DNA of 33,788 nt, from UHGV virus genome UHGV-0101498. One strand, written 5' to 3'. The translations under genes were made by a program, and so were the position numbers. The notes beneath the pieces were generated by a model, which was not told the DNA's origin, did no database searches, and saw only the letters and a program-made list of their open reading frames with translations. Shown piece after piece: positions 4,696 through 26,515 of the stretch. Source of the stretch: a virus. How positions within the stretch are numbered: the first letter of the stretch is position 1; the number at the start of each line of letters is the position of its first letter.

Positions 4696-4922
4696 TGGCT
4701 GATGCAATGGATCTCGTACAGCAGCGCGTTGAAGAAGAACGCCAGCGTCATATCCGTGCTGCCCGTGCCAAAACGCCGGGCGTGTCCCGCGTGCTTTGCA
4801 TTGAGTGTGAAGCGCCAATTCCGCCAGCACGCCGCCGTGCCATTCCGGGTGTGCAGCTTTGCATTACCTGTCAGGAAATCGCAGAGCTGAAAGGCAAACA
4901 TTACAACGGAGGTGCTGTATGA
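4695..4922 (+). CDS. TraR/DksA-family C4 zinc-finger protein (75 aa)
   Basis: CIECEAPIP...(16 aa)...CITCQ; AGGAG RBS; a conserved small protein of P2-like early operons. Confidence 0.7.
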   Translation: MADAMDLVQQRVEEERQRHIRAARAKTPGVSRVLCIECEAPIPPARRRAIPGVQLCITCQEIAELKGKHYNGGAV

Positions 4923-5776
4923 GCACCATCCTGAAATGGGCGGGAAATAAAACCGCCATTATGTCCGAACTGAAAAAGCATCTTCCTGCTGGCCCGCGAC
5001 TGGTTGAACCTTTCGCGGGTTCCTGTGCAGTGATGATGGAGACGGAGTACCCCAGCTATCTTGTTGCGGATATTAATCCTGATTTAATCAACCTCTATAA
5101 AAAGGTTGCTGCTGATTGTGAATCGTTTATATCTCGCGCCAGAGTTTTATTTGAGATCGCAAACAGGGGGGTGGCTTATTACAACATAAGGCAGGAGTTT
5201 AATTACTCAACTGAAATTACTGATTTCATGAAAGCGGTATATTTCCTGTATCTCAATCGTCACGGTTACCGTGGTTTATGTCGCTATAACAAGAGCGGGC
5301 ATTTCAACATTCCCTACGGTAATTATAAAAATCCGTATTTCCCTGAAAAAGAAATTCGCGCATTTGCAGAAAAAGCCCAGCGAGCAACGTTTATCTGCGC
5401 CAGCTTTGATGAAACGCTGGCGATGTTGAAGGCGGGGGATGTGGTGTATTGCGATCCGCCGTATGACGGTACGTTTTCCGGCTATCACACTGATGGTTTC
5501 ACTGAAGATGACCAGTATCACCTGGCATCCGTTCTTGAACATCGGTCATCAGAAGGACATCCGGTCATTGTTTCTAACAGTGATACATCCCTGATCCGTT
5601 CGCTGTATCGCAATTTTACTCACCACTATATCAAGGTAAAACGCAGCATCGGTGTGGCAGCTGGCGAGGGTAAATCAGCAACAGAAATCATTGCTGTTTC
5701 CGGGCCGCGCTGCTGGGTGGGATTTGATTATTCGCGTGGCGTGGATAGTTCTGCCGTGTACGGAGTACGTGCATGA
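4919..5776 (+). CDS. dam: DNA adenine methyltransferase (Dam-like N6-adenine MTase), 285 aa
   Basis: FAGSCAV SAM-binding motif and DPPY catalytic motif ([10 protein letters not shown]); GGAGGT RBS; stop overlaps the A start (ATGA). Confidence 0.85.
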
Positions 5777-8187
5777 GCCATGCCGATATGAACAACTGCT
5801 GCGGCTTTAACGAGGCTGCCGCAGCGTTCTCATGGAACAGCCCGAAAAAGGCCATTAACCCTTATCTGGACCCGGCGGAAGTTGCGCCGGTTTCTGCGCT
5901 TTCAAACCTGATCGCTCTGTACGCTGCCGATAACGAACAGGAACACCTGCGCCGCGAGGCACTGAGTGATCAGGTCTGGGAGCGTTATTTCTTTAATGAA
6001 TCCCGTGATCCTGTCCAGCGCGAAATGGAGCAGGATAAGCTCATTAGTCGGGCAAAGCTGGCGCATGAGCAGCAGCGTTTTAATCCAGATATGGTCATTC
6101 TGGCGGACGTCAATGCCCAGCCTTCCCATATCAGCAAGCCGCTGATGCAACGTATTGAATACTTCAGCAGCCTGGGCAGGCCAAAGGCTTATTCCCGCTA
6201 TTTGCGTGAGACGATTAAGCCATGTTTGGAGCGACTGGAGCATGTACGCGACAGCCAGCTATCTGCATCTTTTCGTTTTATGGCAAGCCATGTAGGGCTG
6301 GACGGCCTGCTGATTCTGCCTGAAATGAGTCAGGATCAGGTGAAACGCCTGTCTACTCTTGTCGCTGCGCATATGAGCATGTGTCTTGATGCCGCTTGTG
6401 GTGATTTGTACGCCACCGATGATGTTAAGCCAGAAGAAATCCGCAAGACATGGGAAAAGGTGGCAGCAGAAACCCTGCGACTGGATGTTATCCCGCCTGC
6501 GTTTGAGCAACTTCGTCGGAAAAGAAACCGCCGTAAACCCGTGCCCTATGAACTCATTCCGGGTTCGCTGGCGCGTATGTTGTGCGCCGATTGGTGGTAC
6601 CGGAAATTATGGAAGATGCGTTGCGAATGGCGGGAAGAGCAGTTGCGTGCTGTTTGCCTGGTCAGCAAAAAAGCATCTCCCTATGTCAGCTATGAAGCCG
6701 TGATGCATAAACGTGAGCAGCGCCGTAAGTCGCTGGAGTTTTTCCGTTCTCATGAACTGGTGAACGAAGACGGCGACACGCTGGACATGGAGGATGTGGT
6801 AAACGCCAGCAGCAGCAACCCGGCGCATCGCCGCAATGAGATGATGGCCTGTGTTAAAGGTCTGGAGCTTATCGCAGAAATGCGCAGTGACTGTGCCGTT
6901 TTCTACACTATCACCTGTCCGTCGCGTTTCCATTCCACGCTCAATAACGGCAGACCAAACCCGACCTGGACAAACGCGACGGTAAGACAAAGCAGCGATT
7001 ATCTGGTCGGCATGTTTGCTGCATTTCGTAAGGCTATGCACAAAGCCGGGTTGCGCTGGTATGGCGTGCGGGTGGCTGAACCGCATCATGACGGCACAGT
7101 TCACTGGCACCTGTTGTGTTTCATGCGCAAAAAAGACCGCCGCGCCATTACTGCATTGTTGCGTAAGTTTGCCATCCGTGAAGACCGCGAGGAGCTGGGC
7201 AATAACACGGGGCCACGCTTTAAGTCTGAGCTGATAAACCCGCGCAAAGGTACGCCAACAAGCTACATCGCGAAATACATCAGTAAGAACATTGACGGGC
7301 GTGGTCTGGCTGGCGAGATCAGCAAGGAAACGGGTAAATCCCTGCGTGATAACGCTGAATACGTTAATGCCTGGGCGTCTCTGCATCGTGTTCAGCAATT
7401 CCGCTTCTTTGGTATTCCGGGGCGTCAGGCTTACCGTGAACTTCGCTTGCTGGCTGGTCAGGCGGCAAGGCAACAGGGTGACAAAAAAGCAGGTGCGCCG
7501 GTACTGGATAACCCGCGTCTTGATGCCATTCTGGCTGCTGCTGATGCTGGTTGTTTTGCCACCTACATCATGAAGCAGGGCGGCGTACTGGTTCCCCGTA
7601 AATATCACCTCATCAGAACCGCTTATGAAATCAACGAAGAGCCGACCGCCTATGGCGATCACGGCATTCGTATTTATGGCATCTGGTCACCCATTGCAGA
7701 GGGCAAGATCTGCACTCATGCAGTGAAGTGGAAAATGGTTCGTAAAGCCGTTGACGTTCAGGAGGCGGCAGCCGACCAGGGCGCTTGCGCCCCTTGGACT
7801 CGTGGCAATAACTGTCCCCTTGCTGAAAATTTGAACCAACAGGAGAAAGATAAATCAGCTGATGGGGACCCCAGAACGGACATTACCAGCATGGATGACA
7901 AGGAGTTGCACGATTACCTGCACAGTATGAACAAAAAAGAGCGCCGGGAACTGGCTGCAAGGTTACGCCTGGTGAAACCGAAACGGCGTAAAGACTACAA
8001 ACAGCGAATTACAGACCATCAGCGACTGCAGCTCGTGTATGAGCTGAAGTCCAGAGGATTTGATGGCAGCGAGAAAGAGGTCGATTTACTCCTTCGCGGA
8101 GGCAGTATTCCGTCAGGAGCAGGCCTGCGTATCTTCTATCGGAACCAGCGTTTGCAAGAAGATGATCAGTGGCGGAACCTGTATTAA
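5773..8187 (+). CDS. A: Replication initiation protein A (rolling-circle endonuclease, P2 gpA-like), 804 aa
   Basis: Large ORF in the P2 gpA position; motif [16 protein letters not shown] (paired tyrosines) and HWHLLCF (HUH-like). Confidence 0.85.
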
Positions 8188-8279
8188 TTACGCGGGTTAA
8201 CAATTCGTGCTCTTAATAATACCAGGCATATCAGGCTGATGAACGTAAAAAAACGTTTTACATCAGTAAGATTATTATA

Positions 8280-8299
8280 TACTGTAAATATAAACAGTG
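8280..8299. promoter_or_regulatory. LexA (SOS) box tACTGT-N8-ACAGtg upstream of the tum-like operon
   Basis: Seen directly: CTGT(8282-8285)-N8-ACAG(8294-8297), about 42 bp upstream of the ATG at 8341. Confidence 0.7.
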
Positions 8300-8340
8300 G
8301 TTATGCGTACAGTATTGCGTGTGGTGTCATAGGAGGAAAG

Positions 8341-8529
8341 ATGCAGGACTATTTTTTGGAGTCTTTGAAGCTCCAGCGCATTGATTTTTTTCTTAAGCTT
8401 GTAGCGGCTAGCGAGTGTAGTGATGAAGAGAAGGGGCTGGCTCTGCAGTGGGTTTCTGAATTGACTGATGAACTCATGGCAAAAATCAGAACCCACGAAT
8501 ACAACCGCTCAATGGATGTCATCAGCTGA
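8341..8529 (+). CDS. Small protein (62 aa), candidate Tum-like antirepressor N-terminal module
   Basis: AGGAGG RBS; directly downstream of the LexA box and followed by a DinI-like ORF, matching the recalled layout of the 186 tum locus. Confidence 0.45.
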   Translation: MQDYFLESLKLQRIDFFLKLVAASECSDEEKGLALQWVSELTDELMAKIRTHEYNRSMDVIS

Positions 8530-8539
8530 GGTGACTTTT

Positions 8540-8773
8540 ATGCGCATTGAAATAATGATCGATAAAGAGCAGAAGATTAGCCAGTCTACCCTGGACGCCC
8601 TTGAATCCGAGCTTTACCGCAATCTGCGCCCCCTGTATCCCAAAACGGTAATTCGCATTCGCAAAGGTAGCTCTAACGGTGTGGAACTAACCGGACTGCA
8701 ACTGGACGAAGAAAGAAAACAAGTGATGAAAATTATGCAGAAGGTGTGGGAAGACGACAGCTGGCTGCATTAA
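8540..8773 (+). CDS. DinI-family protein (77 aa)
   Basis: MRIEIMIDK...LDALESELYRNL...VWEDDSWLH follows the DinI pattern (MRIE..IAK...DAL..EL...TWESADDWF); GAGGTG RBS. Confidence 0.7.
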   Translation: MRIEIMIDKEQKISQSTLDALESELYRNLRPLYPKTVIRIRKGSSNGVELTGLQLDEERKQVMKIMQKVWEDDSWLH

Positions 8774-8933: not shown

Positions 8934-8977
8934 CGTAGATCATGCAGGTGCATGAAAACCACTACATAAAGCGGGCA

Positions 8978-8996
8978 GGCGTGGCGGGGATACGAG
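8978..8996. other. Putative cos (cohesive-end) site
   Basis: GGCGTGGCGGGGATACGAG resembles the 19-nt cohesive ends of P2/186 (recalled as GGCG[A/T]GGCGGGGAAAGCA...); lies between the A-side genes and Q. Confidence 0.5.
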
Positions 8997-9078
8997 CGCG
9001 CGCTTGCTCTTGAAATGAGAAAGTTAATTGGTTAACTTTTTAAGCAGGGTCAACGCACTGTTGAGCAAAGGAGTGAGT

Positions 9079-9726
9079 ATGATTAGTACAGGACATATTG
9101 TCGCTGTTGGCGCGGTTGATGCAGGCGAAGTAAAATTACTGGGTACCGGTTTTGTCATCTCTAATGACAAGATAATTACATCTCGGCATGTAATTCGTGG
9201 TTTTGCTTTTAATATAATAATTTCTCCTTCGGAGATTAATGATTTTAATCTTTATCAAGATACTACAATCAACAGAATTCAGTATTATTCTGTTGAGGTA
9301 ATTGATGAGGATCCAATCAGAGATCTTTGTGTTTTGAAATTTAAGGCAGGATCGTTTTCTGGGCCCAATATTATCCTCTCAAGCTTAGATAAAATATCTA
9401 TTGGTGAAGAAGTTGGTGTTTTGGGTTACCCTCATTGTAATGAGGGTAGAAAAGTACTTACATTCCAAACAGCAAGAGTCGGTGCTAAGGTTTTACTTTC
9501 GAGTAATAATGTAAAGTCTAAACATGCAGTTATAAATTTGCAATCAAGACCAGGTCAATCAGGTTCAGTTATTTTTAATTTAAAAAATAATGAGGTTGTC
9601 GGGGTGTTAGTTGGTGCTTATACAAATAATGCAGCGGGCTCTGTATTTATTGGAGGAATTAATCCTGCAGCTTTGCATCAAACTACTTATGCGATTTCAG
9701 CTGAATATATTAAGGATATGTTATGA
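9079..9726 (+). CDS. Trypsin-like (S1 family) serine protease, 215 aa, cytoplasmic (no signal peptide apparent)
   Basis: Catalytic triad candidates His37 (TSRHV), Asp82 (RDLCVLKF), Ser161 (GQSGS); AGGAG RBS 5 nt before ATG; AT-rich. The ORF track starts at TTG 9028. Confidence 0.75.
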   Translation: MISTGHIVAVGAVDAGEVKLLGTGFVISNDKIITSRHVIRGFAFNIIISPSEINDFNLYQDTTINRIQYYSVEVIDEDPIRDLCVLKFKAGSFSGPNIILSSLDKISIGEEVGVLGYPHCNEGRKVLTFQTARVGAKVLLSSNNVKSKHAVINLQSRPGQSGSVIFNLKNNEVVGVLVGAYTNNAAGSVFIGGINPAALHQTTYAISAEYIKDML

Positions 9727-10169
9727 TCTCTATACCAAATGAAGATGCTGAAGCTTGGCTATCTACCTTAAAAAAATATCAATCATCAACTATTAAATCC
9801 TTTCTCGAGCAAGGTACGGAAGAGCAAGCTCTTGAATCATGGTTAACAGCTTCAGGCCCAAGTTTAACATCTCCATTTGGAGGGGATGCTTCCAGCATGC
9901 CGGGTAAAAAGGCATTTGTTGATCAGTTTAAGCAAGAGTTTAGAGCTTTTGTTTGTGGAAGCGATAAATATGTCAAAGAGAGGAATGGATTGGGTGAGCT
10001 TGGCGGGGATATTAAAACCTATCTTGTCAGTGTTATTTCAAGTTCAATTGCTACCTCTTTAGGTACTACTACAGTATTTATTGCTCCCGCTGTTGTAATC
10101 ATGCTTATTACGATCTCAAAAATGGGTCTTAATGCGTGGTGTTCATTAGAAACCGTAAAAGACTCTTAA
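9723..10169 (+). CDS. Small protein (148 aa) with a soluble N-terminal region and a C-terminal hydrophobic membrane segment; partner of the protease
   Basis: Start overlaps the protease stop (ATGA); C-terminal stretch YLVSVISSSIATSLGTTTVFIAPAVVIMLITISKMGL is predicted transmembrane. Confidence 0.65.
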   Translation: MISIPNEDAEAWLSTLKKYQSSTIKSFLEQGTEEQALESWLTASGPSLTSPFGGDASSMPGKKAFVDQFKQEFRAFVCGSDKYVKERNGLGELGGDIKTYLVSVISSSIATSLGTTTVFIAPAVVIMLITISKMGLNAWCSLETVKDS

Positions 10170-10200
10170 AAAAACCGCCCATAAGGGCGGTATATTTTTT
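10168..10200. terminator. Bidirectional rho-independent terminator between the protease operon and Q
   Basis: AAAAAAA-CCGCCC-ataa-GGGCGG-tatTTTTTT; hairpin flanked by an A-run and a T-run. Confidence 0.7.
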
Positions 10201-11224
10201 ATAAATTATAAAGTTCAAATTGAATAACCTCCTCTCCTAACCATTTGTTTACTTCCTTCATTCTTTCCTGTAGTGGGATTAGCTCGTTACGCACAAATAC
10301 CTTGCTGGCTTTTTCTATGTCACCGAATCCTCCTGTGTTCTGAGGAATGATGCCCATTAATTGTGGCGGAACACGATGAACTGCCAGCATGTCATCACGA
10401 GATACGTTTTTTATATTCAGGAACTCATCCTTTGCCGCTACTTCTGACAGAGGGATGATCTGGATGCCATCCTTTTTGCCGTTAGGTGAGTACATAAACA
10501 GGTTGCGGAAGTTGCCCGGGCCCTTGGCGCTTTTCATGGCATGGCGGATGTTGTTCACGTCTTCCTGGTTCTGTGCGGCGTCGGTCATGTACATGATGAA
10601 CCCTGCATGGCTGCCGTTGATGTAATACTTGCGGCGGAACAGTGTGGCGGACTCGTTCAGTAGGGCGGAAGGGATGGCTGACAAGTACTCCGGCAGGCCG
10701 TAAATCTCCTGGCTTAAGTCCGGCTCCATCAGGTGAAAAATGCTGCCTTTGGTGAACTCGTAGGGCTGAGTGCTCATACCGTATTGCACAAACCAGTAGG
10801 TATCAAGATCCAGGCCACGGCGGGTATATTTCGCCAGCGATGGCTCCAGCGACAGAGTGCCCCCGAGGCGGTTAGTGCGCTTTTCCAGATAGGCATTACC
10901 GAATACCAGATAGTCCTGCACAAAGCGGCTGAATGCCTGCTGGCTCAATAGCGGATGCGGAATAAACGTGCTTGTCAGGATGTTGCGCTTAACGGCAATC
11001 GGTGAGCTGTGATGTACGGCTGCACGGTGGGTACGCGCCAGCCCGTCAAAACTCACCGGCGGTTCAAACCAACGCTCCATCTGTACGCATTCCACATAGT
11101 CCAGCAGTTCACGGCGGTCCAGAACAGGAACGGGATCGCCAAAGCTGAATGCTTCGGCTGAAGTCTGGCTTTTATGCTTGAGCTGATTCGTCGCCGCAGC
11201 GCGGTTTTTCTTACTCTTTCCCAT
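10199..11224 (-). CDS. Q: Portal protein (P2 gpQ-like)
   Basis: 341-aa translation in the P2 Q position, convergent with the terminator; ATG at 11224 overlaps the P stop. Confidence 0.85.
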   Translation of the reverse strand: MGKSKKNRAAATNQLKHKSQTSAEAFSFGDPVPVLDRRELLDYVECVQMERWFEPPVSFDGLARTHRAAVHHSSPIAVKRNILTSTFIPHPLLSQQAFSRFVQDYLVFGNAYLEKRTNRLGGTLSLEPSLAKYTRRGLDLDTYWFVQYGMSTQPYEFTKGSIFHLMEPDLSQEIYGLPEYLSAIPSALLNESATLFRRKYYINGSHAGFIMYMTDAAQNQEDVNNIRHAMKSAKGPGNFRNLFMYSPNGKKDGIQIIPLSEVAAKDEFLNIKNVSRDDMLAVHRVPPQLMGIIPQNTGGFGDIEKASKVFVRNELIPLQERMKEVNKWLGEEVIQFELYNL

Positions 11225-12990
11225 CAAAAAATCTCCACAATATTGCTGGTATTGGCGGATTCGCCCTGCAGCGGTTCGTTAAACAGTGCGTGCATCGTTG
11301 CCCAGGCCAGATCGGCGTGGCTGGCTTCTTCGCTGCGGCTGGCTTCATAGGTCGGGCGGTTGCCGCTGGCGGTGGTGGCGCGACGGATTGCCATGAATGA
11401 CTGCGCAATGTCGGTGTGCCCGGCGTCAAACTCCAGACGGCGGTGGCTGATAATGTCGTAGGCCTTGAGTACCAGGGCGTTTTTAACATTGGGGTTGTAG
11501 ACAAACTCCCGGACGGCAGGAAAGAACGCTTTCACGTTCTCATAAACCCCGTGACCAACGCCGGTTGAGTCGATACCGATATAGGTCACGTTGTACTGTT
11601 CGGTGAGTTTTTTGATGGCGTCAGCCTGGGCGCGGAAGTCCATCCCGCGCCACTGGTGACGCTCAAGAATGCGGAACTTACCACCCGGCACGGCTGGCGG
11701 AGCCACCACCACGCATCCGGCACTGTCGCCGTTCTGCGTACCTTTTGCCGGGTCATAACCGATCCACACTTCGCGCCAGCCAAACGGGCGCAGGGCCAGT
11801 GCATGAAAGTCGGTCCAGACTTCCCAGCTGTCCACCATGCACGCCTGCAGTTCGCTGAGCGGGAACACGGACGCGAGATCGTCCACGAACTCGCACATCA
11901 GCAGGTTCTGGTATTCGTCCGGGCTGTACTCCATGCGTAGCTGGTCGAGGTCGAACAGGTTACAGCCGCCGCGCACCGCATCTTCCACGGTGACTATCTG
12001 GCGGTATTGCCCGTCTGCGCACAGCAGGCCGGGGGCCAGATTGCTGTGGGACAGGTCGATGTCCACCTTGTCAGCTTTGTTGCGTCCACGGTTGAACAGC
12101 GCACCGGACCAGAACGGATAAGCACTGTGGGTCAGGCTGGATGGCGTGGAAAAATAGGTTTGTCGCCATTTTTTGTGAATAGCCATCCCGGAAGCCACTT
12201 TGCGCAGCTCCTGGAATTTCGGTATCCAGAAATATTCATCCAGATACAGGTTGCCGTGATAACTCTGGGCCGTGCGGGCATTGGTGCCGAGGAAGTAAAG
12301 CGTGGCTCCGTTAGGAAGCACCATCGGATCGCCTTTTAGCTCCACCTCGACTTCTTTGGCGAAGTCGATGATGTATTGTTTAAAGACGTGGGCCTGAGCC
12401 TTACTGGCGGAAAGGAAAATCTGGTTACGTCCGGTAAGCAGGGCGTCAATCAGGGCTTCACGGGCAAAGTAAAAGGTCGCGCCGATCTGGCGTGACTTCA
12501 GCAGGTTGCGGATGCGGTTGGTTTTTCCGGCTTCCCACCAGTGGCGCTGGTAGTTGAACATGGAGGAATGGAAGATTTCTTCCAGCTTCTCAATCTGTTC
12601 ATCGGTGAAGACATTCTTTTCCGGCTGACGGCGCGGGCCTTTGTTGCGGTTGGCGACGTTAGGGTTTAAGTCAGCTTCGTTGCCGCCATTGTTAAACTTG
12701 CCGATCCGCGCGTGGCGCTCAGACTGGCGCGCCAGCAGGTCAATCTCTTTGAAATCTTTCCCTTCTTTGTGCTCCTTCATAATGAGCTGACAGTAGCGTG
12801 CGGCGGTGGTGAGCTGCATCTGATCCAGCGGCCCATAGTCACCCCACTTGTCGCGTTTTTTCCAGCTGTGAACGGTTGCAACTTTCTCGCCCAGCATTTC
12901 AGCAATGCGGGCGACGCGGTATCCCTGAAAGTACAGCAGCATGGCCTGCCGACGGGGATCGAGATCTGCGGGTGTCAGTGTGGTGTTCAT
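11224..12990 (-). CDS. P: Terminase large (ATPase) subunit (P2 gpP-like), 588 aa
   Basis: Large ORF upstream of Q on the same strand, divergent from O, as in P2. Confidence 0.85.
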   Translation of the reverse strand: MNTTLTPADLDPRRQAMLLYFQGYRVARIAEMLGEKVATVHSWKKRDKWGDYGPLDQMQLTTAARYCQLIMKEHKEGKDFKEIDLLARQSERHARIGKFNNGGNEADLNPNVANRNKGPRRQPEKNVFTDEQIEKLEEIFHSSMFNYQRHWWEAGKTNRIRNLLKSRQIGATFYFAREALIDALLTGRNQIFLSASKAQAHVFKQYIIDFAKEVEVELKGDPMVLPNGATLYFLGTNARTAQSYHGNLYLDEYFWIPKFQELRKVASGMAIHKKWRQTYFSTPSSLTHSAYPFWSGALFNRGRNKADKVDIDLSHSNLAPGLLCADGQYRQIVTVEDAVRGGCNLFDLDQLRMEYSPDEYQNLLMCEFVDDLASVFPLSELQACMVDSWEVWTDFHALALRPFGWREVWIGYDPAKGTQNGDSAGCVVVAPPAVPGGKFRILERHQWRGMDFRAQADAIKKLTEQYNVTYIGIDSTGVGHGVYENVKAFFPAVREFVYNPNVKNALVLKAYDIISHRRLEFDAGHTDIAQSFMAIRRATTASGNRPTYEASRSEEASHADLAWATMHALFNEPLQGESANTSNIVEIF

Positions 12991-13132: not shown

Positions 13133-13966
13133 ATGACAGTGAAAGCAAAGCGTTTTCGCATCGGGGTGGAAGGTGCCACCACCGATGGACGCGAAATCCA
13201 GCGTGAATGGCTGGAACAGATGGCAGCCAGCTACAACCCGGCGGTGTATACCGCGCTGATTAACCTTGAGCACATCAAGTCTTATCTGCCGGACAGCACC
13301 TTTAACCGCTACGGCAAGGTGACGGCGCTGTTTGCTGAAGAAATCACGGAAGGTCCGCTGGCAGGCAAGATGGCGCTGTATGCCGACGTTGAGCCAACGG
13401 AGTCCCTGGTGGAGCTGGTGAAAAAAGGCCAGAAATTATTCACCTCTATGGAAGTCAGCCCGAAGTTCGCTGATACGGGCAAAGCCTACCTGGTCGGCCT
13501 GGCTGCCACTGATGACCCTGCCAGTCTGGGCACTGAAATGCTGACATTCAGCGCCAGTGCAGCCCATAACCCGCTGGCAAACCGCAAGCAGAATCCTGCC
13601 AATCTCTTTACCGCTGCAGAGGAAACGGTGATCGAACTGGAAGAAATCCAGGAGGACAAACCGTCCCTGTTTGCCCGTGTCACGGCGCTGTTCACCAAAA
13701 AAGAGCAGTCCGATGACGCCCGGTTCTCTGATGTGCATAAGGCCGTGGAACTGGTCGCCACTGAGCAGCAGAACCTGAGTGCGCGCACCGAAAAATCCCT
13801 GTCTGAGCAGGAAGAACGCCTGTCTGAGCTGGAGACTGCCCTGCAGGCACAGCTGACCGCCTTTAACGAACTGGTGGACAAGCTGAGCCATGAAGACAGC
13901 CGCCAGGACTACCGCCAGCGTGCAACAGGCGGTAACGCCCCCGCTGACACTCTGACCAATTGCTGA
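13133..13966 (+). CDS. O: Capsid scaffolding protein (P2 gpO-like)
   Basis: Contains RFRIGVEGATTDGREIQ...INLEH...YLVGLAATDDPASLGTE, matching P2 gpO as recalled. Confidence 0.85.
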   Translation: MTVKAKRFRIGVEGATTDGREIQREWLEQMAASYNPAVYTALINLEHIKSYLPDSTFNRYGKVTALFAEEITEGPLAGKMALYADVEPTESLVELVKKGQKLFTSMEVSPKFADTGKAYLVGLAATDDPASLGTEMLTFSASAAHNPLANRKQNPANLFTAAEETVIELEEIQEDKPSLFARVTALFTKKEQSDDARFSDVHKAVELVATEQQNLSARTEKSLSEQEERLSELETALQAQLTAFNELVDKLSHEDSRQDYRQRATGGNAPADTLTNC

Positions 13967-22896: not shown

Positions 22897-23495
22897 TGGA
22901 TAACGCCGTATTAAATAGCGAGCTTATTGCCACGAAGGCGGGGAATATTACTGTTTATAACTATGATGGTGAGACGCGGGAATATATTTCTGCATCAACT
23001 GAATATCTTGCAGTGGGTGTCGGTATTCCAGCATATTCCTGTTTAGACGCTCCTGGTACATCTAAGGCTGGTTATACAATTTGCCGTTCTGTGGATTTAA
23101 AATCATGGGAATATGTGTCAGACCATCGCGGTGAAATCGTCTATAACACCGAAACGGGAGAATCGAAAGAAATCACAGCTCCGGGTGATTATCCTGAAAA
23201 TACAACCACTATCGCCCCGTTAACGCCATACGATAAATGGGATGGTGAAAAATGGGTGACGGATATCAATGCTCAGCACGTAGCGGAAGTGGAAGCGGCA
23301 GAGCAACAGAAATCTGTGCAGCTTCTGTTCGCAAAGGAAAAGATCATTCTTTGGCAGACTGAATTACAGCTGGGAATTATCAGCGACGAAGATAAAGAAA
23401 AACTAATATCTTGGGTGAACTATATCAAAGCTGTTCAGGCAGTAGATACCCAGAAAGCTCACAATATCATCTGGCCTAAAAAACCATTCATATAA
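22896..23495 (+). CDS. G: Tail fibre assembly chaperone (P2 gpG-like)
   Basis: Immediately follows H with an overlapping start/stop; 199 aa. Confidence 0.8.
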   Translation: MDNAVLNSELIATKAGNITVYNYDGETREYISASTEYLAVGVGIPAYSCLDAPGTSKAGYTICRSVDLKSWEYVSDHRGEIVYNTETGESKEITAPGDYPENTTTIAPLTPYDKWDGEKWVTDINAQHVAEVEAAEQQKSVQLLFAKEKIILWQTELQLGIISDEDKEKLISWVNYIKAVQAVDTQKAHNIIWPKKPFI

Positions 23496-23497
23496 AT

Positions 23498-23522
23498 AAA
23501 CGCCCCTTATGGGGCGTATTTT
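23498..23522. terminator. Bidirectional rho-independent terminator between G and the convergent acyltransferase gene
   Basis: AAACGCCCC-ttat-GGGGCGT followed by ATTTTG. Confidence 0.65.
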
Positions 23523-24676
23523 GCTGCTTGCACGTTATTCTTTGGAAGAATTTTATTTGATAAATAATTGGAAAATTTTATCGCGTTATCATCAATTAGC
23601 AATTTAAAAATTAAAGCTGCAAGTATTGAAGATAATAAAGTGATTGGGAAAGTAATAAGTAAAGACTTTCCGTATGAAACTCCTGCATCACCAAGCTTAA
23701 TTACGATCAAAGAAGATATTGAAGCTATTAATGGAAAATGCACCAGATAAAGAGAGTATGATACATCTCCAAGAAATTTACAGGTTTTTGTTTTGAATAA
23801 ATTTGAGATAACTATTGATTTATCAATTGCTATAATAAGAAACATTGAACCAAAGGCTTGAGAAACAATTCTCAAATCAAAGTAAGTTATGTCACTGTTA
23901 TTTATCCAGATACTATGTTCAGTTATAAAATATGGGTATGAACCTAGGTAACATCCTAGTAAAATAAACATAAAGATAATTGTGGTATTAATTTTCTTTA
24001 TATTAACTGAAACATCTGCACAAATCACCCCTAATATAAATCCTAATAGATGACTTGAGCTAAATACCACAATACCCAAAGTATAAAAAGCAAACCTAAT
24101 TCTGGTAGTGCAAACTAGTGGGACCAGAACGAGTACAAGAATTGAGCCAACCAATTCGGTGTGAATGGTCCATAATACTGGGTTTAATGTTTGAACTCCG
24201 TAAAAATATGTACCAATACCCCCTTCCCATACCGCATTCAGTAATGTCATTGTAGTTGGCATCGCTGGGATTACTTGTGATAAAGAGTACACTGCAGTTT
24301 CTGATGAATGAAATCCAATCGTTGTCATCAGAATAAAGGAAAATATAGTAGATGCAATGGTAGGTATTGCAAGACGTGGGTATCTCTTGATAATGGATTT
24401 AGAGTACCATTCTAGCCCCTTCCCTTTGAAAAAGGGAATCGATAGAACCATTCCACTCAAAACGAAGAAAAGCATTACGGCAAAGTGACCATTATATAAT
24501 ATATTAAATGGAGTTTCACTTATGTATTTCTCTCCATAATGATCTATCTGATTTTGAACAAAAACAGATGGTAGAAAGAATTGCATGAAATGGCTTATTA
24601 AAACTATCAAGCAAGCTATACCACGAATACCATCCAGTGCGTGATCTCGGGAAGGCGTCGTTAATTGTTGAACCAT
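23507..24676 (-). CDS. Integral-membrane acyltransferase (acyltransferase-3/OafA-like); candidate O-antigen or surface-polysaccharide acetyltransferase
   Basis: About 390 aa with about 10 predicted transmembrane helices; N-terminal LDGIRGIA...LISHF motif; AT-rich. Alternative start at 24691. Confidence 0.75.
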   Translation of the reverse strand: MVQQLTTPSRDHALDGIRGIACLIVLISHFMQFFLPSVFVQNQIDHYGEKYISETPFNILYNGHFAVMLFFVLSGMVLSIPFFKGKGLEWYSKSIIKRYPRLAIPTIASTIFSFILMTTIGFHSSETAVYSLSQVIPAMPTTMTLLNAVWEGGIGTYFYGVQTLNPVLWTIHTELVGSILVLVLVPLVCTTRIRFAFYTLGIVVFSSSHLLGFILGVICADVSVNIKKINTTIIFMFILLGCYLGSYPYFITEHSIWINNSDITYFDLRIVSQAFGSMFLIIAIDKSIVISNLFKTKTCKFLGDVSYSLYLVHFPLIASISSLIVIKLGDAGVSYGKSLLITFPITLLSSILAALIFKLLIDDNAIKFSNYLSNKILPKNNVQAAKYAP

Positions 24677-24918
24677 CAATTCCTCACACATTGTAATAAA
24701 GTATTAAAATAAAATAGTAAAAGCAGAATATACAAATACGAAAAGCGGAATTATACTTTACAAGAGTGCTTGATGCTATTGTTTTGTCGAGATTTATAAT
24801 CTGATCTTCTGTAGATGTTGTCCTGGCATTGTCCAATCATGATCTATGGGCTGGCTGGCGAACTTTCGATAGTGCGAGTATTGAATGATTTCCAGCCGTT
24901 ACCGATTTTACGTGTTAA

Positions 24919-25167
24919 TTAGTGAACAAACCACTCGTCAGCAGATTCCCAGGTATCTTTCAGAGTCTCCTGAACAAAAGTTTTTGCAGAATCCTTATCT
25001 GCGGTGCGTGTAACAGAAAGGCCATCGTTGCTGGTGGCTTTTACGATCACCTCTACATCGTCATAACGTTTACTGATGCGTCGGGTTAATTCTTCCTTTA
25101 ACGCATCCACAGCACCGGTTGGCATTTTAGTCATTTTTTCTTTGGCTATGCAGATTTCAATACGCAT
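24919..25167 (-). CDS. DinI-family protein (82 aa)
   Basis: [31 protein letters not shown]...[11 protein letters not shown], strongly DinI-like; GAGGGA RBS. Confidence 0.8.
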
Positions 25168-25180
25168 AAAAGTCCCTCTA

Positions 25181-25200
25181 TACTGTGTTTGTATACAGTA
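25181..25200. promoter_or_regulatory. LexA box TACTGTGTTTGTATACAGTA (near-perfect palindrome) upstream of the DinI-like gene
   Basis: CTGT-N8-ACAG seen directly, 14 bp upstream of the start codon. Confidence 0.75.
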
Positions 25201-25208
25201 TTATTTTT

Positions 25209-25228
25209 AACTGTATGGATAAACAGTG
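25209..25228. promoter_or_regulatory. Second LexA box aACTGTatggataaACAGtg
   Basis: CTGT-N8-ACAG, 8 bp from the first box; abuts the stop of the tyrosine recombinase gene. Confidence 0.6.
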
Positions 25229-25855
25229 TCAAGAGGTCTTATTTCTGCTCCTTTGGAGCTCTTCAAAACGATTATGTAAAGATTTCGGATACAGTTCGGT
25301 ATATACCTGCCATAGCACGTTTAATGAACGATGCCCTGTAACCTGGGCGACTTCCTCAATACTAAAACCAGCCTCAAATAAGCGACTTGCCCCTTCTCTA
25401 CGCAAATCATGGTATCGCAGATCTTTAATACCTAATTTGCTTCTTACCCTCTGGAATCCCGCAGTAACAGAAGTGCTGTTATATGGAAAAATGAATTCTG
25501 ATTTTTTGGGTTGTCGTTGGACGATATCCCAGGCTTCCCCAAGCAAGGCTACTTTCATATGGTTGCCTTCCTTTTTACGTGGATCTTTCCTGTCTCTTAC
25601 GAGTATGGATTTTTGTTCCTGATCGAGATCCTCCCATCGTAATCGGCATACTTCACCGATTCGCATACATGACCACACAGAAAATTTGAGGATATCAACG
25701 AACGGAATTTTTGAGCATTTATGTGTAGATCGTTGTTGAAGACCTTCAATGAGCATGTCCAGTTCATCAGATGCCGGTCTACGATTACGACGATTTGATT
25801 TACCAATTAAACCAACGTTTAAGAAAATGCAGAGGTAACAGCTAACTGGCATCAT
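25229..25855 (-). CDS. Short tyrosine recombinase (catalytic domain only, about 208 aa): FimB/FimE-like switch recombinase or 5'-truncated integrase
   Basis: R (RIGEVCRLR), HxxR (YHDLRREG) and H...Y (GHRSLNVLWQVYTELY) motifs present; no N-terminal core-binding domain; no good RBS. Confidence 0.55.
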   Translation of the reverse strand: MMPVSCYLCIFLNVGLIGKSNRRNRRPASDELDMLIEGLQQRSTHKCSKIPFVDILKFSVWSCMRIGEVCRLRWEDLDQEQKSILVRDRKDPRKKEGNHMKVALLGEAWDIVQRQPKKSEFIFPYNSTSVTAGFQRVRSKLGIKDLRYHDLRREGASRLFEAGFSIEEVAQVTGHRSLNVLWQVYTELYPKSLHNRFEELQRSRNKTS

Positions 25856-25882
25856 CTCCGGTTTTTATTCAGGGGGATGATC

Positions 25883-26449
25883 ATGCTTATTGGCTATGTA
25901 CGCGTGTCAACAAATGACCAGAACACCGATTTGCAACGTAATGCACTGAACTGCGCGGGATGTGAGCGGATTTTTGAGGACAAAATCAGTGGCACTAAGT
26001 CCGACAGACCGGGGCTGAAAAAACTACTCAGGACACTATCGGCAGGAGACACGCTGGTTGTCTGGAAGCTGGACATGTTGGGGCGCAGTATGCGGCATCT
26101 TGTTACGCTGATAGAAGAGTTGCGCCAGCGTGGTGTGAATTTCAGAAGCCTGACTGACAGTATTGATACCAGTACCCCAATGGGCCGTTTCTTTTTTCAT
26201 GTCATGGGTGCCCTGGCTGAAATGGAACGCGAACTGATAGTTGAACGTACCAGGGCAGGGCTGGCTGCAGCTCGTGCCAAAGGCAGAGTAGGTGGACGCC
26301 GTCCTAAGTTGACCACCGAACAGTGGGCACAGATTGGGCGTTTACTCGAGGCCGGAGAATCAATACAGCGTATTGCACTGATTTTTGATGTAGGCGTTTC
26401 TACCATTTATAGAAAATTTCCGGCAAATAAGATCAATGAATCCCCCTGA
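25883..26449 (+). CDS. Serine recombinase, DNA invertase of the Hin/Gin/Pin family (188 aa)
   Basis: MLIGYVRVSTNDQNTDLQRNAL...SLTDSIDTSTPMGRFFFHVMGALAEMERELIVERT with a C-terminal HTH, nearly co-linear with Hin/Gin as recalled; GGGGG RBS 6 nt before the ATG. Confidence 0.85.
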   Translation: MLIGYVRVSTNDQNTDLQRNALNCAGCERIFEDKISGTKSDRPGLKKLLRTLSAGDTLVVWKLDMLGRSMRHLVTLIEELRQRGVNFRSLTDSIDTSTPMGRFFFHVMGALAEMERELIVERTRAGLAAARAKGRVGGRRPKLTTEQWAQIGRLLEAGESIQRIALIFDVGVSTIYRKFPANKINESP

Positions 26450-26497
26450 ATCAGCATTATGTTGATTATCCCTGCAAGCAGACAAATACCGTTATTT

Positions 26498-26515
26498 TGT
26501 GTGAATAACGACACA
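26498..26515. promoter_or_regulatory. Late-promoter activator dyad TGT-N12-ACA upstream of FI
   Basis: TGTgtgaataacgacACA seen directly, 86 bp upstream of the FI ATG. Confidence 0.55.

Follow-up and report, generated by a model that had tools for sequence, protein, structure and literature searches.

The window analyzed in this study is the complete 33,788-nucleotide stretch of UHGV virus genome UHGV-0101498, a P2-like prophage with an integrase, a CI-type repressor, a CII-like regulator, and a Dam-type methylase. We examined a cassette of two genes, encoding a predicted serine protease (open reading frame 1, ORF1) and a small partner protein (ORF2), which adjoins the cos site and lies between the gpA-like ORF and the portal gene Q, the position of the P2 gpA-gpQ hotspot (Table 1). 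The GC content was 0.33-0.40 over positions 9000-10350 and 0.50-0.61 in the flanks, indicating an AT-rich insert. Comparison of the first 27 bases of P2 (NC_001895), which start with the annotated 19-nt cosL, with positions 8978-9004 revealed 21 identical bases, and Klebsiella P2-like phages showed 96-100% identity to window bases 8950-9007. In P2, the distance from cosL to the Q stop codon is only 167 bp, including the tQ terminator, and no gene is present there, whereas the cos-to-Q interval in the window is 1,202 bp.

ORF1 and ORF2 are on the same strand, overlap through an ATGA junction at 9723-9726, and are translationally coupled. The start of ORF1 was assigned to the ATG at 9079, with GGAG at 9070-9073 five bases upstream, and not to the TTG at 9028 given by the ORF finder, because the PADLOC alignment begins at residue 4 and the homologue in RefSeq has 215 amino acids (aa). 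Downstream of ORF2, a hairpin terminates both the cassette and the convergent Q/P operon; the tQ terminator of P2 is found at the equivalent place. The preliminary description of this DNA had proposed an AT-rich insert between a cos-like site and Q, holding two overlapping genes with a bidirectional terminator and their own promoter region. The GC drop, the P2 cosL alignment, the Phage_portal match, the gene overlap, and the T-runs on both strands of the hairpin agree with all of this except the promoter: a consensus scan reported no site upstream of 9079, and the best candidate seen by eye is weak.

Table 1. Coordinates of the cassette and of neighboring features in the window
Feature	Position	Strand	Details
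gpA-like replication protein	5773-8187		Same-length 804-aa product has Pfam Phage_GPA in exact-copy loci
P2-type cos site	8978-8996	.	19-nt cohesive-end sequence GGCGTGGCGGGGATACGAG; left boundary of the insert
Weak candidate promoter	9010-9038	+	TTGAAA-17-TAACTT; found by eye, 8/12 consensus positions, below scan threshold
ORF1, PDC-M35A	9079-9726	+	Predicted 215-aa S1 (chymotrypsin-fold, HtrA/DegS-like) serine protease (Pfam, PADLOC, AF2/Foldseek)
ORF2, PDC-M35B	9723-10169	+	148-aa partner predicted to be all-helical; conserved Phe-Gly loop, C-terminal hydrophobic helical hairpin
Predicted disordered loop, partner residues 46-59	9858-9899	+	pLDDT < 50; holds near-invariant Phe52-Gly53
Proposed membrane hairpin, partner residues 97-134	10011-10124	+	Ser/Ala-rich helix and hydrophobic helix
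Bidirectional intrinsic terminator	10174-10191	.	ACCGCCCATAAGGGCGGT; 7-bp stem, 6 GC pairs, T-runs on both strands
Portal gene Q	10199-11227	minus	Pfam Phage_portal
Terminase gene P	11224-12990		Convergent with the cassette, in the Q/P operon

Sequence and model both point to ORF1 being an intact cytoplasmic serine protease of the HtrA/DegS-like type. It matched the Pfam families Trypsin_2 (E 2.4e-16, 61.2 bits against a cut-off of 27.6) and Trypsin (34.6 bits against a gathering score of 20.6), and the catalytic triad His37/Asp82/Ser161 (GQSGS; numbered from ATG 9079) was invariant in 36 diverse homologues of 48-69% identity. The AlphaFold2 (AF2) model was a double beta-barrel with a predicted local distance difference test score (pLDDT) of 87 and a predicted template modeling score (pTM) of 0.84. 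The nearest solved structures in Foldseek were MucD, DegP, DegS, DegQ, and MarP (E about 1e-10, template modeling score 0.64-0.69), while the nearest proteins by sequence were the Spl and V8 proteases. PADLOC indicated a resemblance to the protease domains of retron type XI, LmuA, HamA, and Avs1b. The N-terminus of ORF1 has no hydrophobic stretch (Kyte-Doolittle means over 19 residues peak at 1.26; signal peptides were judged from hydropathy and not with a formal predictor), and the protein consists of the protease domain alone, with no PDZ or sensor domain. A periplasmic HtrA identity was rejected on the lack of a signal peptide and a PDZ domain. Sensors of the STAND/Avs or diversity-generating retroelement type were not found either: the protease was a bare 215-aa domain in all homologues listed, and no conserved third gene was seen among the neighbors of the pair. 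The complete triad and the missing signal peptide had both been recognized in the preliminary description.

ORF2 had been described as a protein with a hydrophilic N-terminal region and a C-terminal membrane segment, and the Kyte-Doolittle profile and the predicted hydrophobic hairpin fit this architecture: the N-terminal part is hydrophilic, and a hydrophobic segment with values up to 2.16 lies around residues 109-136. Searches of Pfam (E up to 1) and NCBIfam gave zero matches. The AF2 model, built from a 104-sequence alignment, was compact with eight helices (pLDDT 82.7, pTM 0.79), and no structural match to it was found in PDB or BFVD. A holin or SLATT identity was rejected, as neither a profile nor a fold matched.

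Conservation of the partner was examined in 143 representatives with mutual identity of at most 50%. In the middle of the predicted disordered loop, the only one that AF2 left unplaced, Phe52 was kept in 126 and Gly53 in 130 of the 143, and position 54 was G, A, S, or T in 134. These rank among the most strongly conserved positions of the partner and give the best internal hint at a mechanism. This loop is flexible and varies in length from 11 to 19 residues across the family. Such a motif, linear, conserved, and placed in a flexible linker whose length varies, has the look of a protease recognition site, and we propose the Phe-Gly loop as a putative contact or cleavage site of the protease. 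The helices of the hairpin comprise residues 97-113 (Ser/Ala-rich) and 117-134, with Lys98 and Lys133 on the flanks; averaged over the family, their Kyte-Doolittle values were 1.28 and 1.98, and each helix has about one charged residue. Gly114 and Pro122 were near-invariant (94% and 97%). Cys78 and Cys140 (codons 9954-9956 and 10140-10142) were 96-97% conserved, and Glu72 and Tyr83 97-98%. Candidate roles for the two cysteines are a disulfide, a metal site, acylation, and catalysis.

Both proteins matched a pair of profiles in PADLOC-DB v2. ORF1 matched PDC-M35A (PDLC04593) with E 1.3e-91, residues 4-215 aligning to positions 5-216 of 216, and ORF2 matched PDC-M35B (PDLC04594) with E 6.3e-57, residues 3-144 aligning to positions 6-144 of 148. 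The order A then B, adjacent on one strand, by which PDC-M35 is called, is present in the window. PDC-M35 is one of 145 phage-defense candidates (PDCs) that Payne et al. (bioRxiv 10.1101/2024.01.29.577857) derived from genes embedded in BREX, DISARM, and type I restriction-modification (RM) operons by "guilt-by-embedding"; by the authors' own statement, these are predictions only. Supplement file 8 of that study lists the cassette as FAM_02427>>FAM_02508 with the entry 'Assign as candidate PDC-M35'. By its sequence, the window locus is a member of a catalogued computational candidate family and not an undescribed system. The pairing, which the preliminary description did not recognize as a named system, is named and catalogued, but as a computational candidate only. 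The PDCs tested in a cold-seep study did not include M35. Neither Rousset et al. 2022 (PMC9122126) nor a 2026 P2/P4 preprint mentions a protease system, and no equivalent was found in the literature on two-gene systems of a trypsin and a membrane protein.

The distribution of the two families was examined in sequence collections. The protease family gave 373 matches in a 90%-clustered database, with about 50% identity across phyla. A profile search returned 231 matches for the partner family, and an exhaustive search of 1.84 billion representatives (E up to 1e-3) returned 784 clusters at 50% identity, almost all of 137-170 aa and single-domain. A scan of one genome per species gave 74 loci in at least ten phyla: Bacteroidota, Bacillota, Actinomycetota, Cyanobacteriota, Pseudomonadota, Planctomycetota, Chloroflexota, Spirochaetota, Campylobacterota, and Verrucomicrobiota. 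Scanning viral contigs with the partner profile returned only one locus, from IMG/VR.

In 81 of 84 loci, the protease gene was directly followed by the partner gene on its own strand; the three exceptions are truncated by contig ends. True intergenic spacings were about -8 to +12 nt; a listed gap of -37 is an artefact of choosing the upstream-most start codon, and the copies with gaps of 67-106 nt (L073, L078, and L080) are probably degraded. The identity matrices of the protease and the partner correlated (r 0.87, Mantel p 0.001), although the partner family evolves faster, with a mean identity of 34% versus 48% for the protease. Conserved adjacency and co-evolution, the marks of protease-effector modules, are therefore both seen in this family. 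The recurrence of the pair in so many loci is more than chance, and the two genes are an obligate unit that has been inherited together across bacteria.

Several unusual copies were observed. In Psychromonas sp. SA13A (L038, 9980-10897), both families matched one and the same ORF. Owing to an in-frame deletion, the protease, up to about residue 207, runs straight into the partner from about residue 45, where the conserved loop begins ('GPNSTVGFGG'), so that the N-terminal three helices of the partner are lacking; this is a natural fusion or a decayed copy. Cyanobacterial copies in Tychonema, Microcoleus, and Oscillatoriales (L065-L071) have a longer partner of about 190 aa and lie in a conserved neighborhood, with genes for PD-T4-6-like Ser/Thr kinases, DUF565, and NADH dehydrogenase among the neighbors. 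This neighborhood suggests a larger island, kept vertically or transferred as a block.

The gpA-cos-Q interval of P2-like prophages was defined as a hotspot by Rousset et al. 2022 (PMC9122126), in line with the earlier view of the variable cos region as a site of anti-phage genes. Among 5426 complete E. coli genomes, 1251 matched the query flanks, and only 13 of those 1251 carried the pair. The E. coli copy, found at this very site, is 73% identical and bears the annotation "S1 family peptidase | hypothetical protein". A pair was also found in the gpA-portal interval of a distant P2-like prophage of Marinomonas; the pair therefore recurs at this position in other P2-like prophages. The cassette is cargo that varies among otherwise related prophages.

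The exact ORF2 sequence was present in 303 blocks of the assembly collection, and the cluster labels were Salmonella enterica for the protease and E. coli for the partner. In the five exact-copy places shown, the pair followed gpA and DinI and preceded Q, except in one decayed prophage. In that P2 remnant (L089, 2357-3447), the exact pair is kept without Q (portal) and P (terminase); next come an Ogr/Delta gene and a host gene for an Asp-Al_Ex transporter.

As the cassette adjoins the portal and terminase genes, the protease might serve the P2-like phage in virion maturation or as a scaffold protease. We consider this extremely improbable and rejected it. The prophage lineage has its own capsid-scaffold gene of the GPO family just beyond terminase P, which is annotated in the E. 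coli relative, carries Pfam Phage_GPO_N in the exact-copy loci, and corresponds to the window ORF at 13133-13966. Moreover, P2 lacks the protease gene, the pair is as rare among related E. coli prophages as stated above, and it has non-phage locations as well, namely an RM operon and chromosomal islands.

Outside P2-like prophages, the pair was found in Aeromonas as a moron of a Mu-like prophage, with the tape-measure gene on one side and tail genes on the other, and in Synechococcus in an integrase-bounded island. In Clostridium perfringens (L002, 4599-14244), the protease-partner pair is one of three units embedded between S and R of a type I RM operon (hsdM, hsdS ... hsdR), the others being an integrase fragment and, right beside the pair, a SMODS and SLATT_4 pair. 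This copy shows the context from which PDC-M35 was derived. We pooled 375 genes lying within three genes of at least 70 distinct copies. Mobile functions among them included 13 tyrosine integrases, transposases, and resolvases. The other families included RM methylases, specificity and restriction subunits, YoeB/ParE toxins, SAVED, SMODS, Abi_2, Fic, AAA_15/AAA_21 ATPases, and Schlafen-type helicases. Comparison with PADLOC (E up to 1e-10) revealed pAgo, a CBASS cyclase and effector, an AbiP2-type DRT, and PD-Lambda-1, as well as PDC-S35, MkoA, a type I REase, and PD-T4-6-like kinases. Descriptively, this neighbor set is the company expected of a defense or conflict module.

The same company would suit an addiction or stabilization module, or another selfish function, that maintains prophages, islands, and RM operons and gives no phage protection: the pair sits on mobile or variable DNA beside integrases, transposases, and toxin-antitoxin (TA) genes, and an exact copy is kept in the decayed P2 remnant. 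However, embedding in RM operons and prophage defense hotspots is a signature that has been used successfully to find defense systems, and many TA-like modules prove to be defense systems, so that this explanation overlaps with a defense role; taken by itself, we regard it as improbable. A cargo function unrelated to conflict, such as lysogenic conversion, envelope-protein processing, or virulence, would likewise ride on mobile elements. P2 hotspots also hold non-defense cargo, including partition systems and cytolethal distending toxin (Rousset et al. 2022, PMC9122126), and protein quality control is a common task of HtrA-like proteases. A signal peptide is absent from both proteins, however, and the spread over at least ten phyla, the strict two-gene synteny, and the RM-embedded and moron contexts are unlike a host-specific conversion trait, which makes such a function a very improbable one.

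We consider it probable that the cassette is a mobile two-gene defense or conflict module. Its most likely role is that of an abortive-infection phage-defense system that a P2-like prophage carries as cargo in its gpA-cos-Q hotspot. Interpretation as defense cargo is reasonable and is common to the PADLOC curators. The proposal in the preliminary description of an undescribed anti-phage or abortive-infection module therefore fits the findings as regards variable anti-phage cargo, given the hotspot, the rarity among related prophages, and the defense-associated and mobile company, and does not hold as regards novelty, the pairing being already catalogued.

How the module may act is suggested by precedent. 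Small proteins encoded beside defense proteases are latent membrane-permeabilizing toxins that are freed by one site-specific cut (PMC12642450); examples are gasdermin, Pepco/Trypco, and EACC1, and such modules were first predicted in PMC7159879. Because of this precedent, the Phe-Gly loop, and the hairpin, we favor the same logic of a protease unleashing an effector; that the protease cuts the partner and that the partner is a membrane effector is, by this analogy, a possible but tentative mechanism. In the uninfected cell, the partner would be latent, with its N-terminal helices packed against the hairpin. Upon infection, the protease would become active, either by binding a phage product or through the Phe-Gly loop becoming accessible. 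The active protease would then cut the partner at the loop and remove the N-terminal three-helix part, and the freed C-terminal part (about residues 53-148) could insert or oligomerize in the inner membrane and collapse the membrane barrier, which would abort the infection. Alternatively, the N-terminal domain of the partner may itself be the infection sensor. DegS and DegP are allosterically activated by peptides. As the protease has no sensor domain, it might be switched allosterically by a phage product in the same manner.

The roles of the two proteins might also be reversed. The tail-anchored partner would then be a membrane sensor or inhibitor whose Phe-Gly loop fills the active site as a substrate-like inhibitor, and infection, through membrane perturbation or a phage protein, would free the protease to cut an essential host or phage protein, as in a TA-type pair. 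A protease acting as effector has a parallel in Lit, which cuts EF-Tu. Such an arrangement would explain why the protease is the better conserved of the two, as expected of an effector enzyme, and its domain is like the effector protease domains of Lamassu, retron XI, and Avs1. The conserved exposed loop suits an inhibitory loop as well as a scissile one, and the tight translational coupling with the partner downstream resembles a TA operon. On the other hand, the hairpin, Gly114, and Pro122 are among the most conserved features of the partner, beyond the needs of a simple anchor; no target can be proposed; and in recently characterized pairs of a small protein and a protease, the small protein is the effector (PMC12642450). 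We therefore regard reversed roles as an unlikely alternative to cleavage of the partner by the protease.

A number of observations weigh against the defense interpretation and the cleavage mechanism. The protease has no sensor domain, unlike most characterized protease-effector modules, and its trigger is unexplained. Contact between the loop and the active site is hypothetical. Pfam shows no homology of the partner to Pepco/Trypco, EACC1, SLATT, or gasdermin, and in its model the partner is all-alpha rather than beta-rich. Conservation of Cys78/Cys140, Glu72, and Tyr83 is accounted for neither by a pore former nor by the other models and might mean a different activity. The defense association of the neighbors is descriptive and lacks a matched control, and many copies adjoin housekeeping genes, for example in Ancylomarina and Salegentibacter. 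Literature searches for PDC-M35 and for the accessions of the E. coli homologue gave no experimental or other characterization.

If the cassette is a defense system, it would be a compact (1.1 kb) and very widely transferred immune module with an effector fold unlike solved structures, and it would raise the question of how a bare protease with no obvious sensor detects infection. It would also extend the logic of the "proteolysis-gated death effector", which is common to eukaryotic pyroptosis, to a helical effector. A further step, which we hold to be doubtful, is that the partner family represents a new class of helical effectors that damage membranes under the control of proteolysis, served by a stand-alone, infection-sensing HtrA-like protease, as a helical counterpart of gasdermin, Pepco, and EACC1; if so, this would be the most minimal protease-effector immune module known, spread horizontally over at least ten bacterial phyla. 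Given the many exact partner copies and the Salmonella enterica and E. coli labels, the cassette may affect the phage susceptibility of food-borne pathogens. The value of the finding lies in the family itself, a very widespread and strictly paired combination of a sensor-less protease and a predicted helical membrane protein that would be easy to test.

Other parts of the prophage were also inspected. A gene for a D12-class (Dam-like) N6-adenine methyltransferase (4859-5776, E 9.1e-76) lies directly upstream of the gpA-like gene and overlaps it, and the E. coli relative has the same arrangement. Between gpA and cos (8239-8773), only a small ORF without a family and a DinI-like gene (Pfam DinI, E 1.3e-22) were found; homologues of old and tin were absent from this interval. 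An extra DUF8087 gene is present between gpA and cos in sister prophages that carry the same pair. A second AT-rich cargo block (23000-26500, GC 0.36-0.42) is located between the tail-fibre and tail-sheath genes, the Z/fun position of P2. On the minus strand, it encodes a membrane acyltransferase of the Acyl_transf_3 family (23507-24691), whose gene could serve lysogenic conversion by modifying the O-antigen, and a tyrosine recombinase of 208 aa (25229-25855); a resolvase-invertase of the Hin/Gin type (25877-26449) is encoded on the plus strand.

Finally, we compared the cassette with known systems. It shares the cos-proximal variable locus with P2 old/tin and with the gpA-gpQ hotspot cargo (PMC9122126). 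It has no homology to Old or Tin and lies on the Q side of cos, not the A side, and the hotspot systems described as tested in Rousset et al. 2022 (PMC9122126) do not include it. The SLATT proteins, predicted pore formers with two transmembrane segments, resemble the partner in being small helical proteins of conflict systems with two C-terminal hydrophobic helices; the partner has no SLATT match in Pfam at E up to 1 and is coupled to a protease instead of a nucleotide-signal synthase.

The S1C proteases HtrA, DegS, and MarP are the best structural neighbors of ORF1 and have the same catalytic triad, and ORF1 gives weak matches to the MarP and DegP models (MarP, 35 bits against a cut-off of 250). 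It differs from them in having no PDZ domain, signal peptide, or membrane anchor and belongs to a distinct, tightly conserved 215-aa clade that keeps its identity of about 50% across phyla. The gasdermin, Pepco (Trypco1/2), and EACC1 modules (Evans et al. 2025, PMC12642450; Kaur et al. 2020, PMC7159879) likewise have a trypsin-fold protease beside a small non-enzymatic protein. They share with the cassette a membrane-active segment, a candidate cleavage loop, and a defense-associated context, the segment and loop of the cassette being predicted from sequence and model. Pepco is a beta-barrel and EACC1 uses beta-strands, whereas the PDC-M35 partner is predicted to be all-alpha and has no Trypco or EACC1 match in Pfam; in addition, the protease of the cassette is a bare 215-aa protein, unfused to STAND/Avs sensors, and its gene comes first. 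With PDC-M35 itself we found no difference: both profiles are matched over their full length by adjacent genes, and the window locus is a full member of the family.

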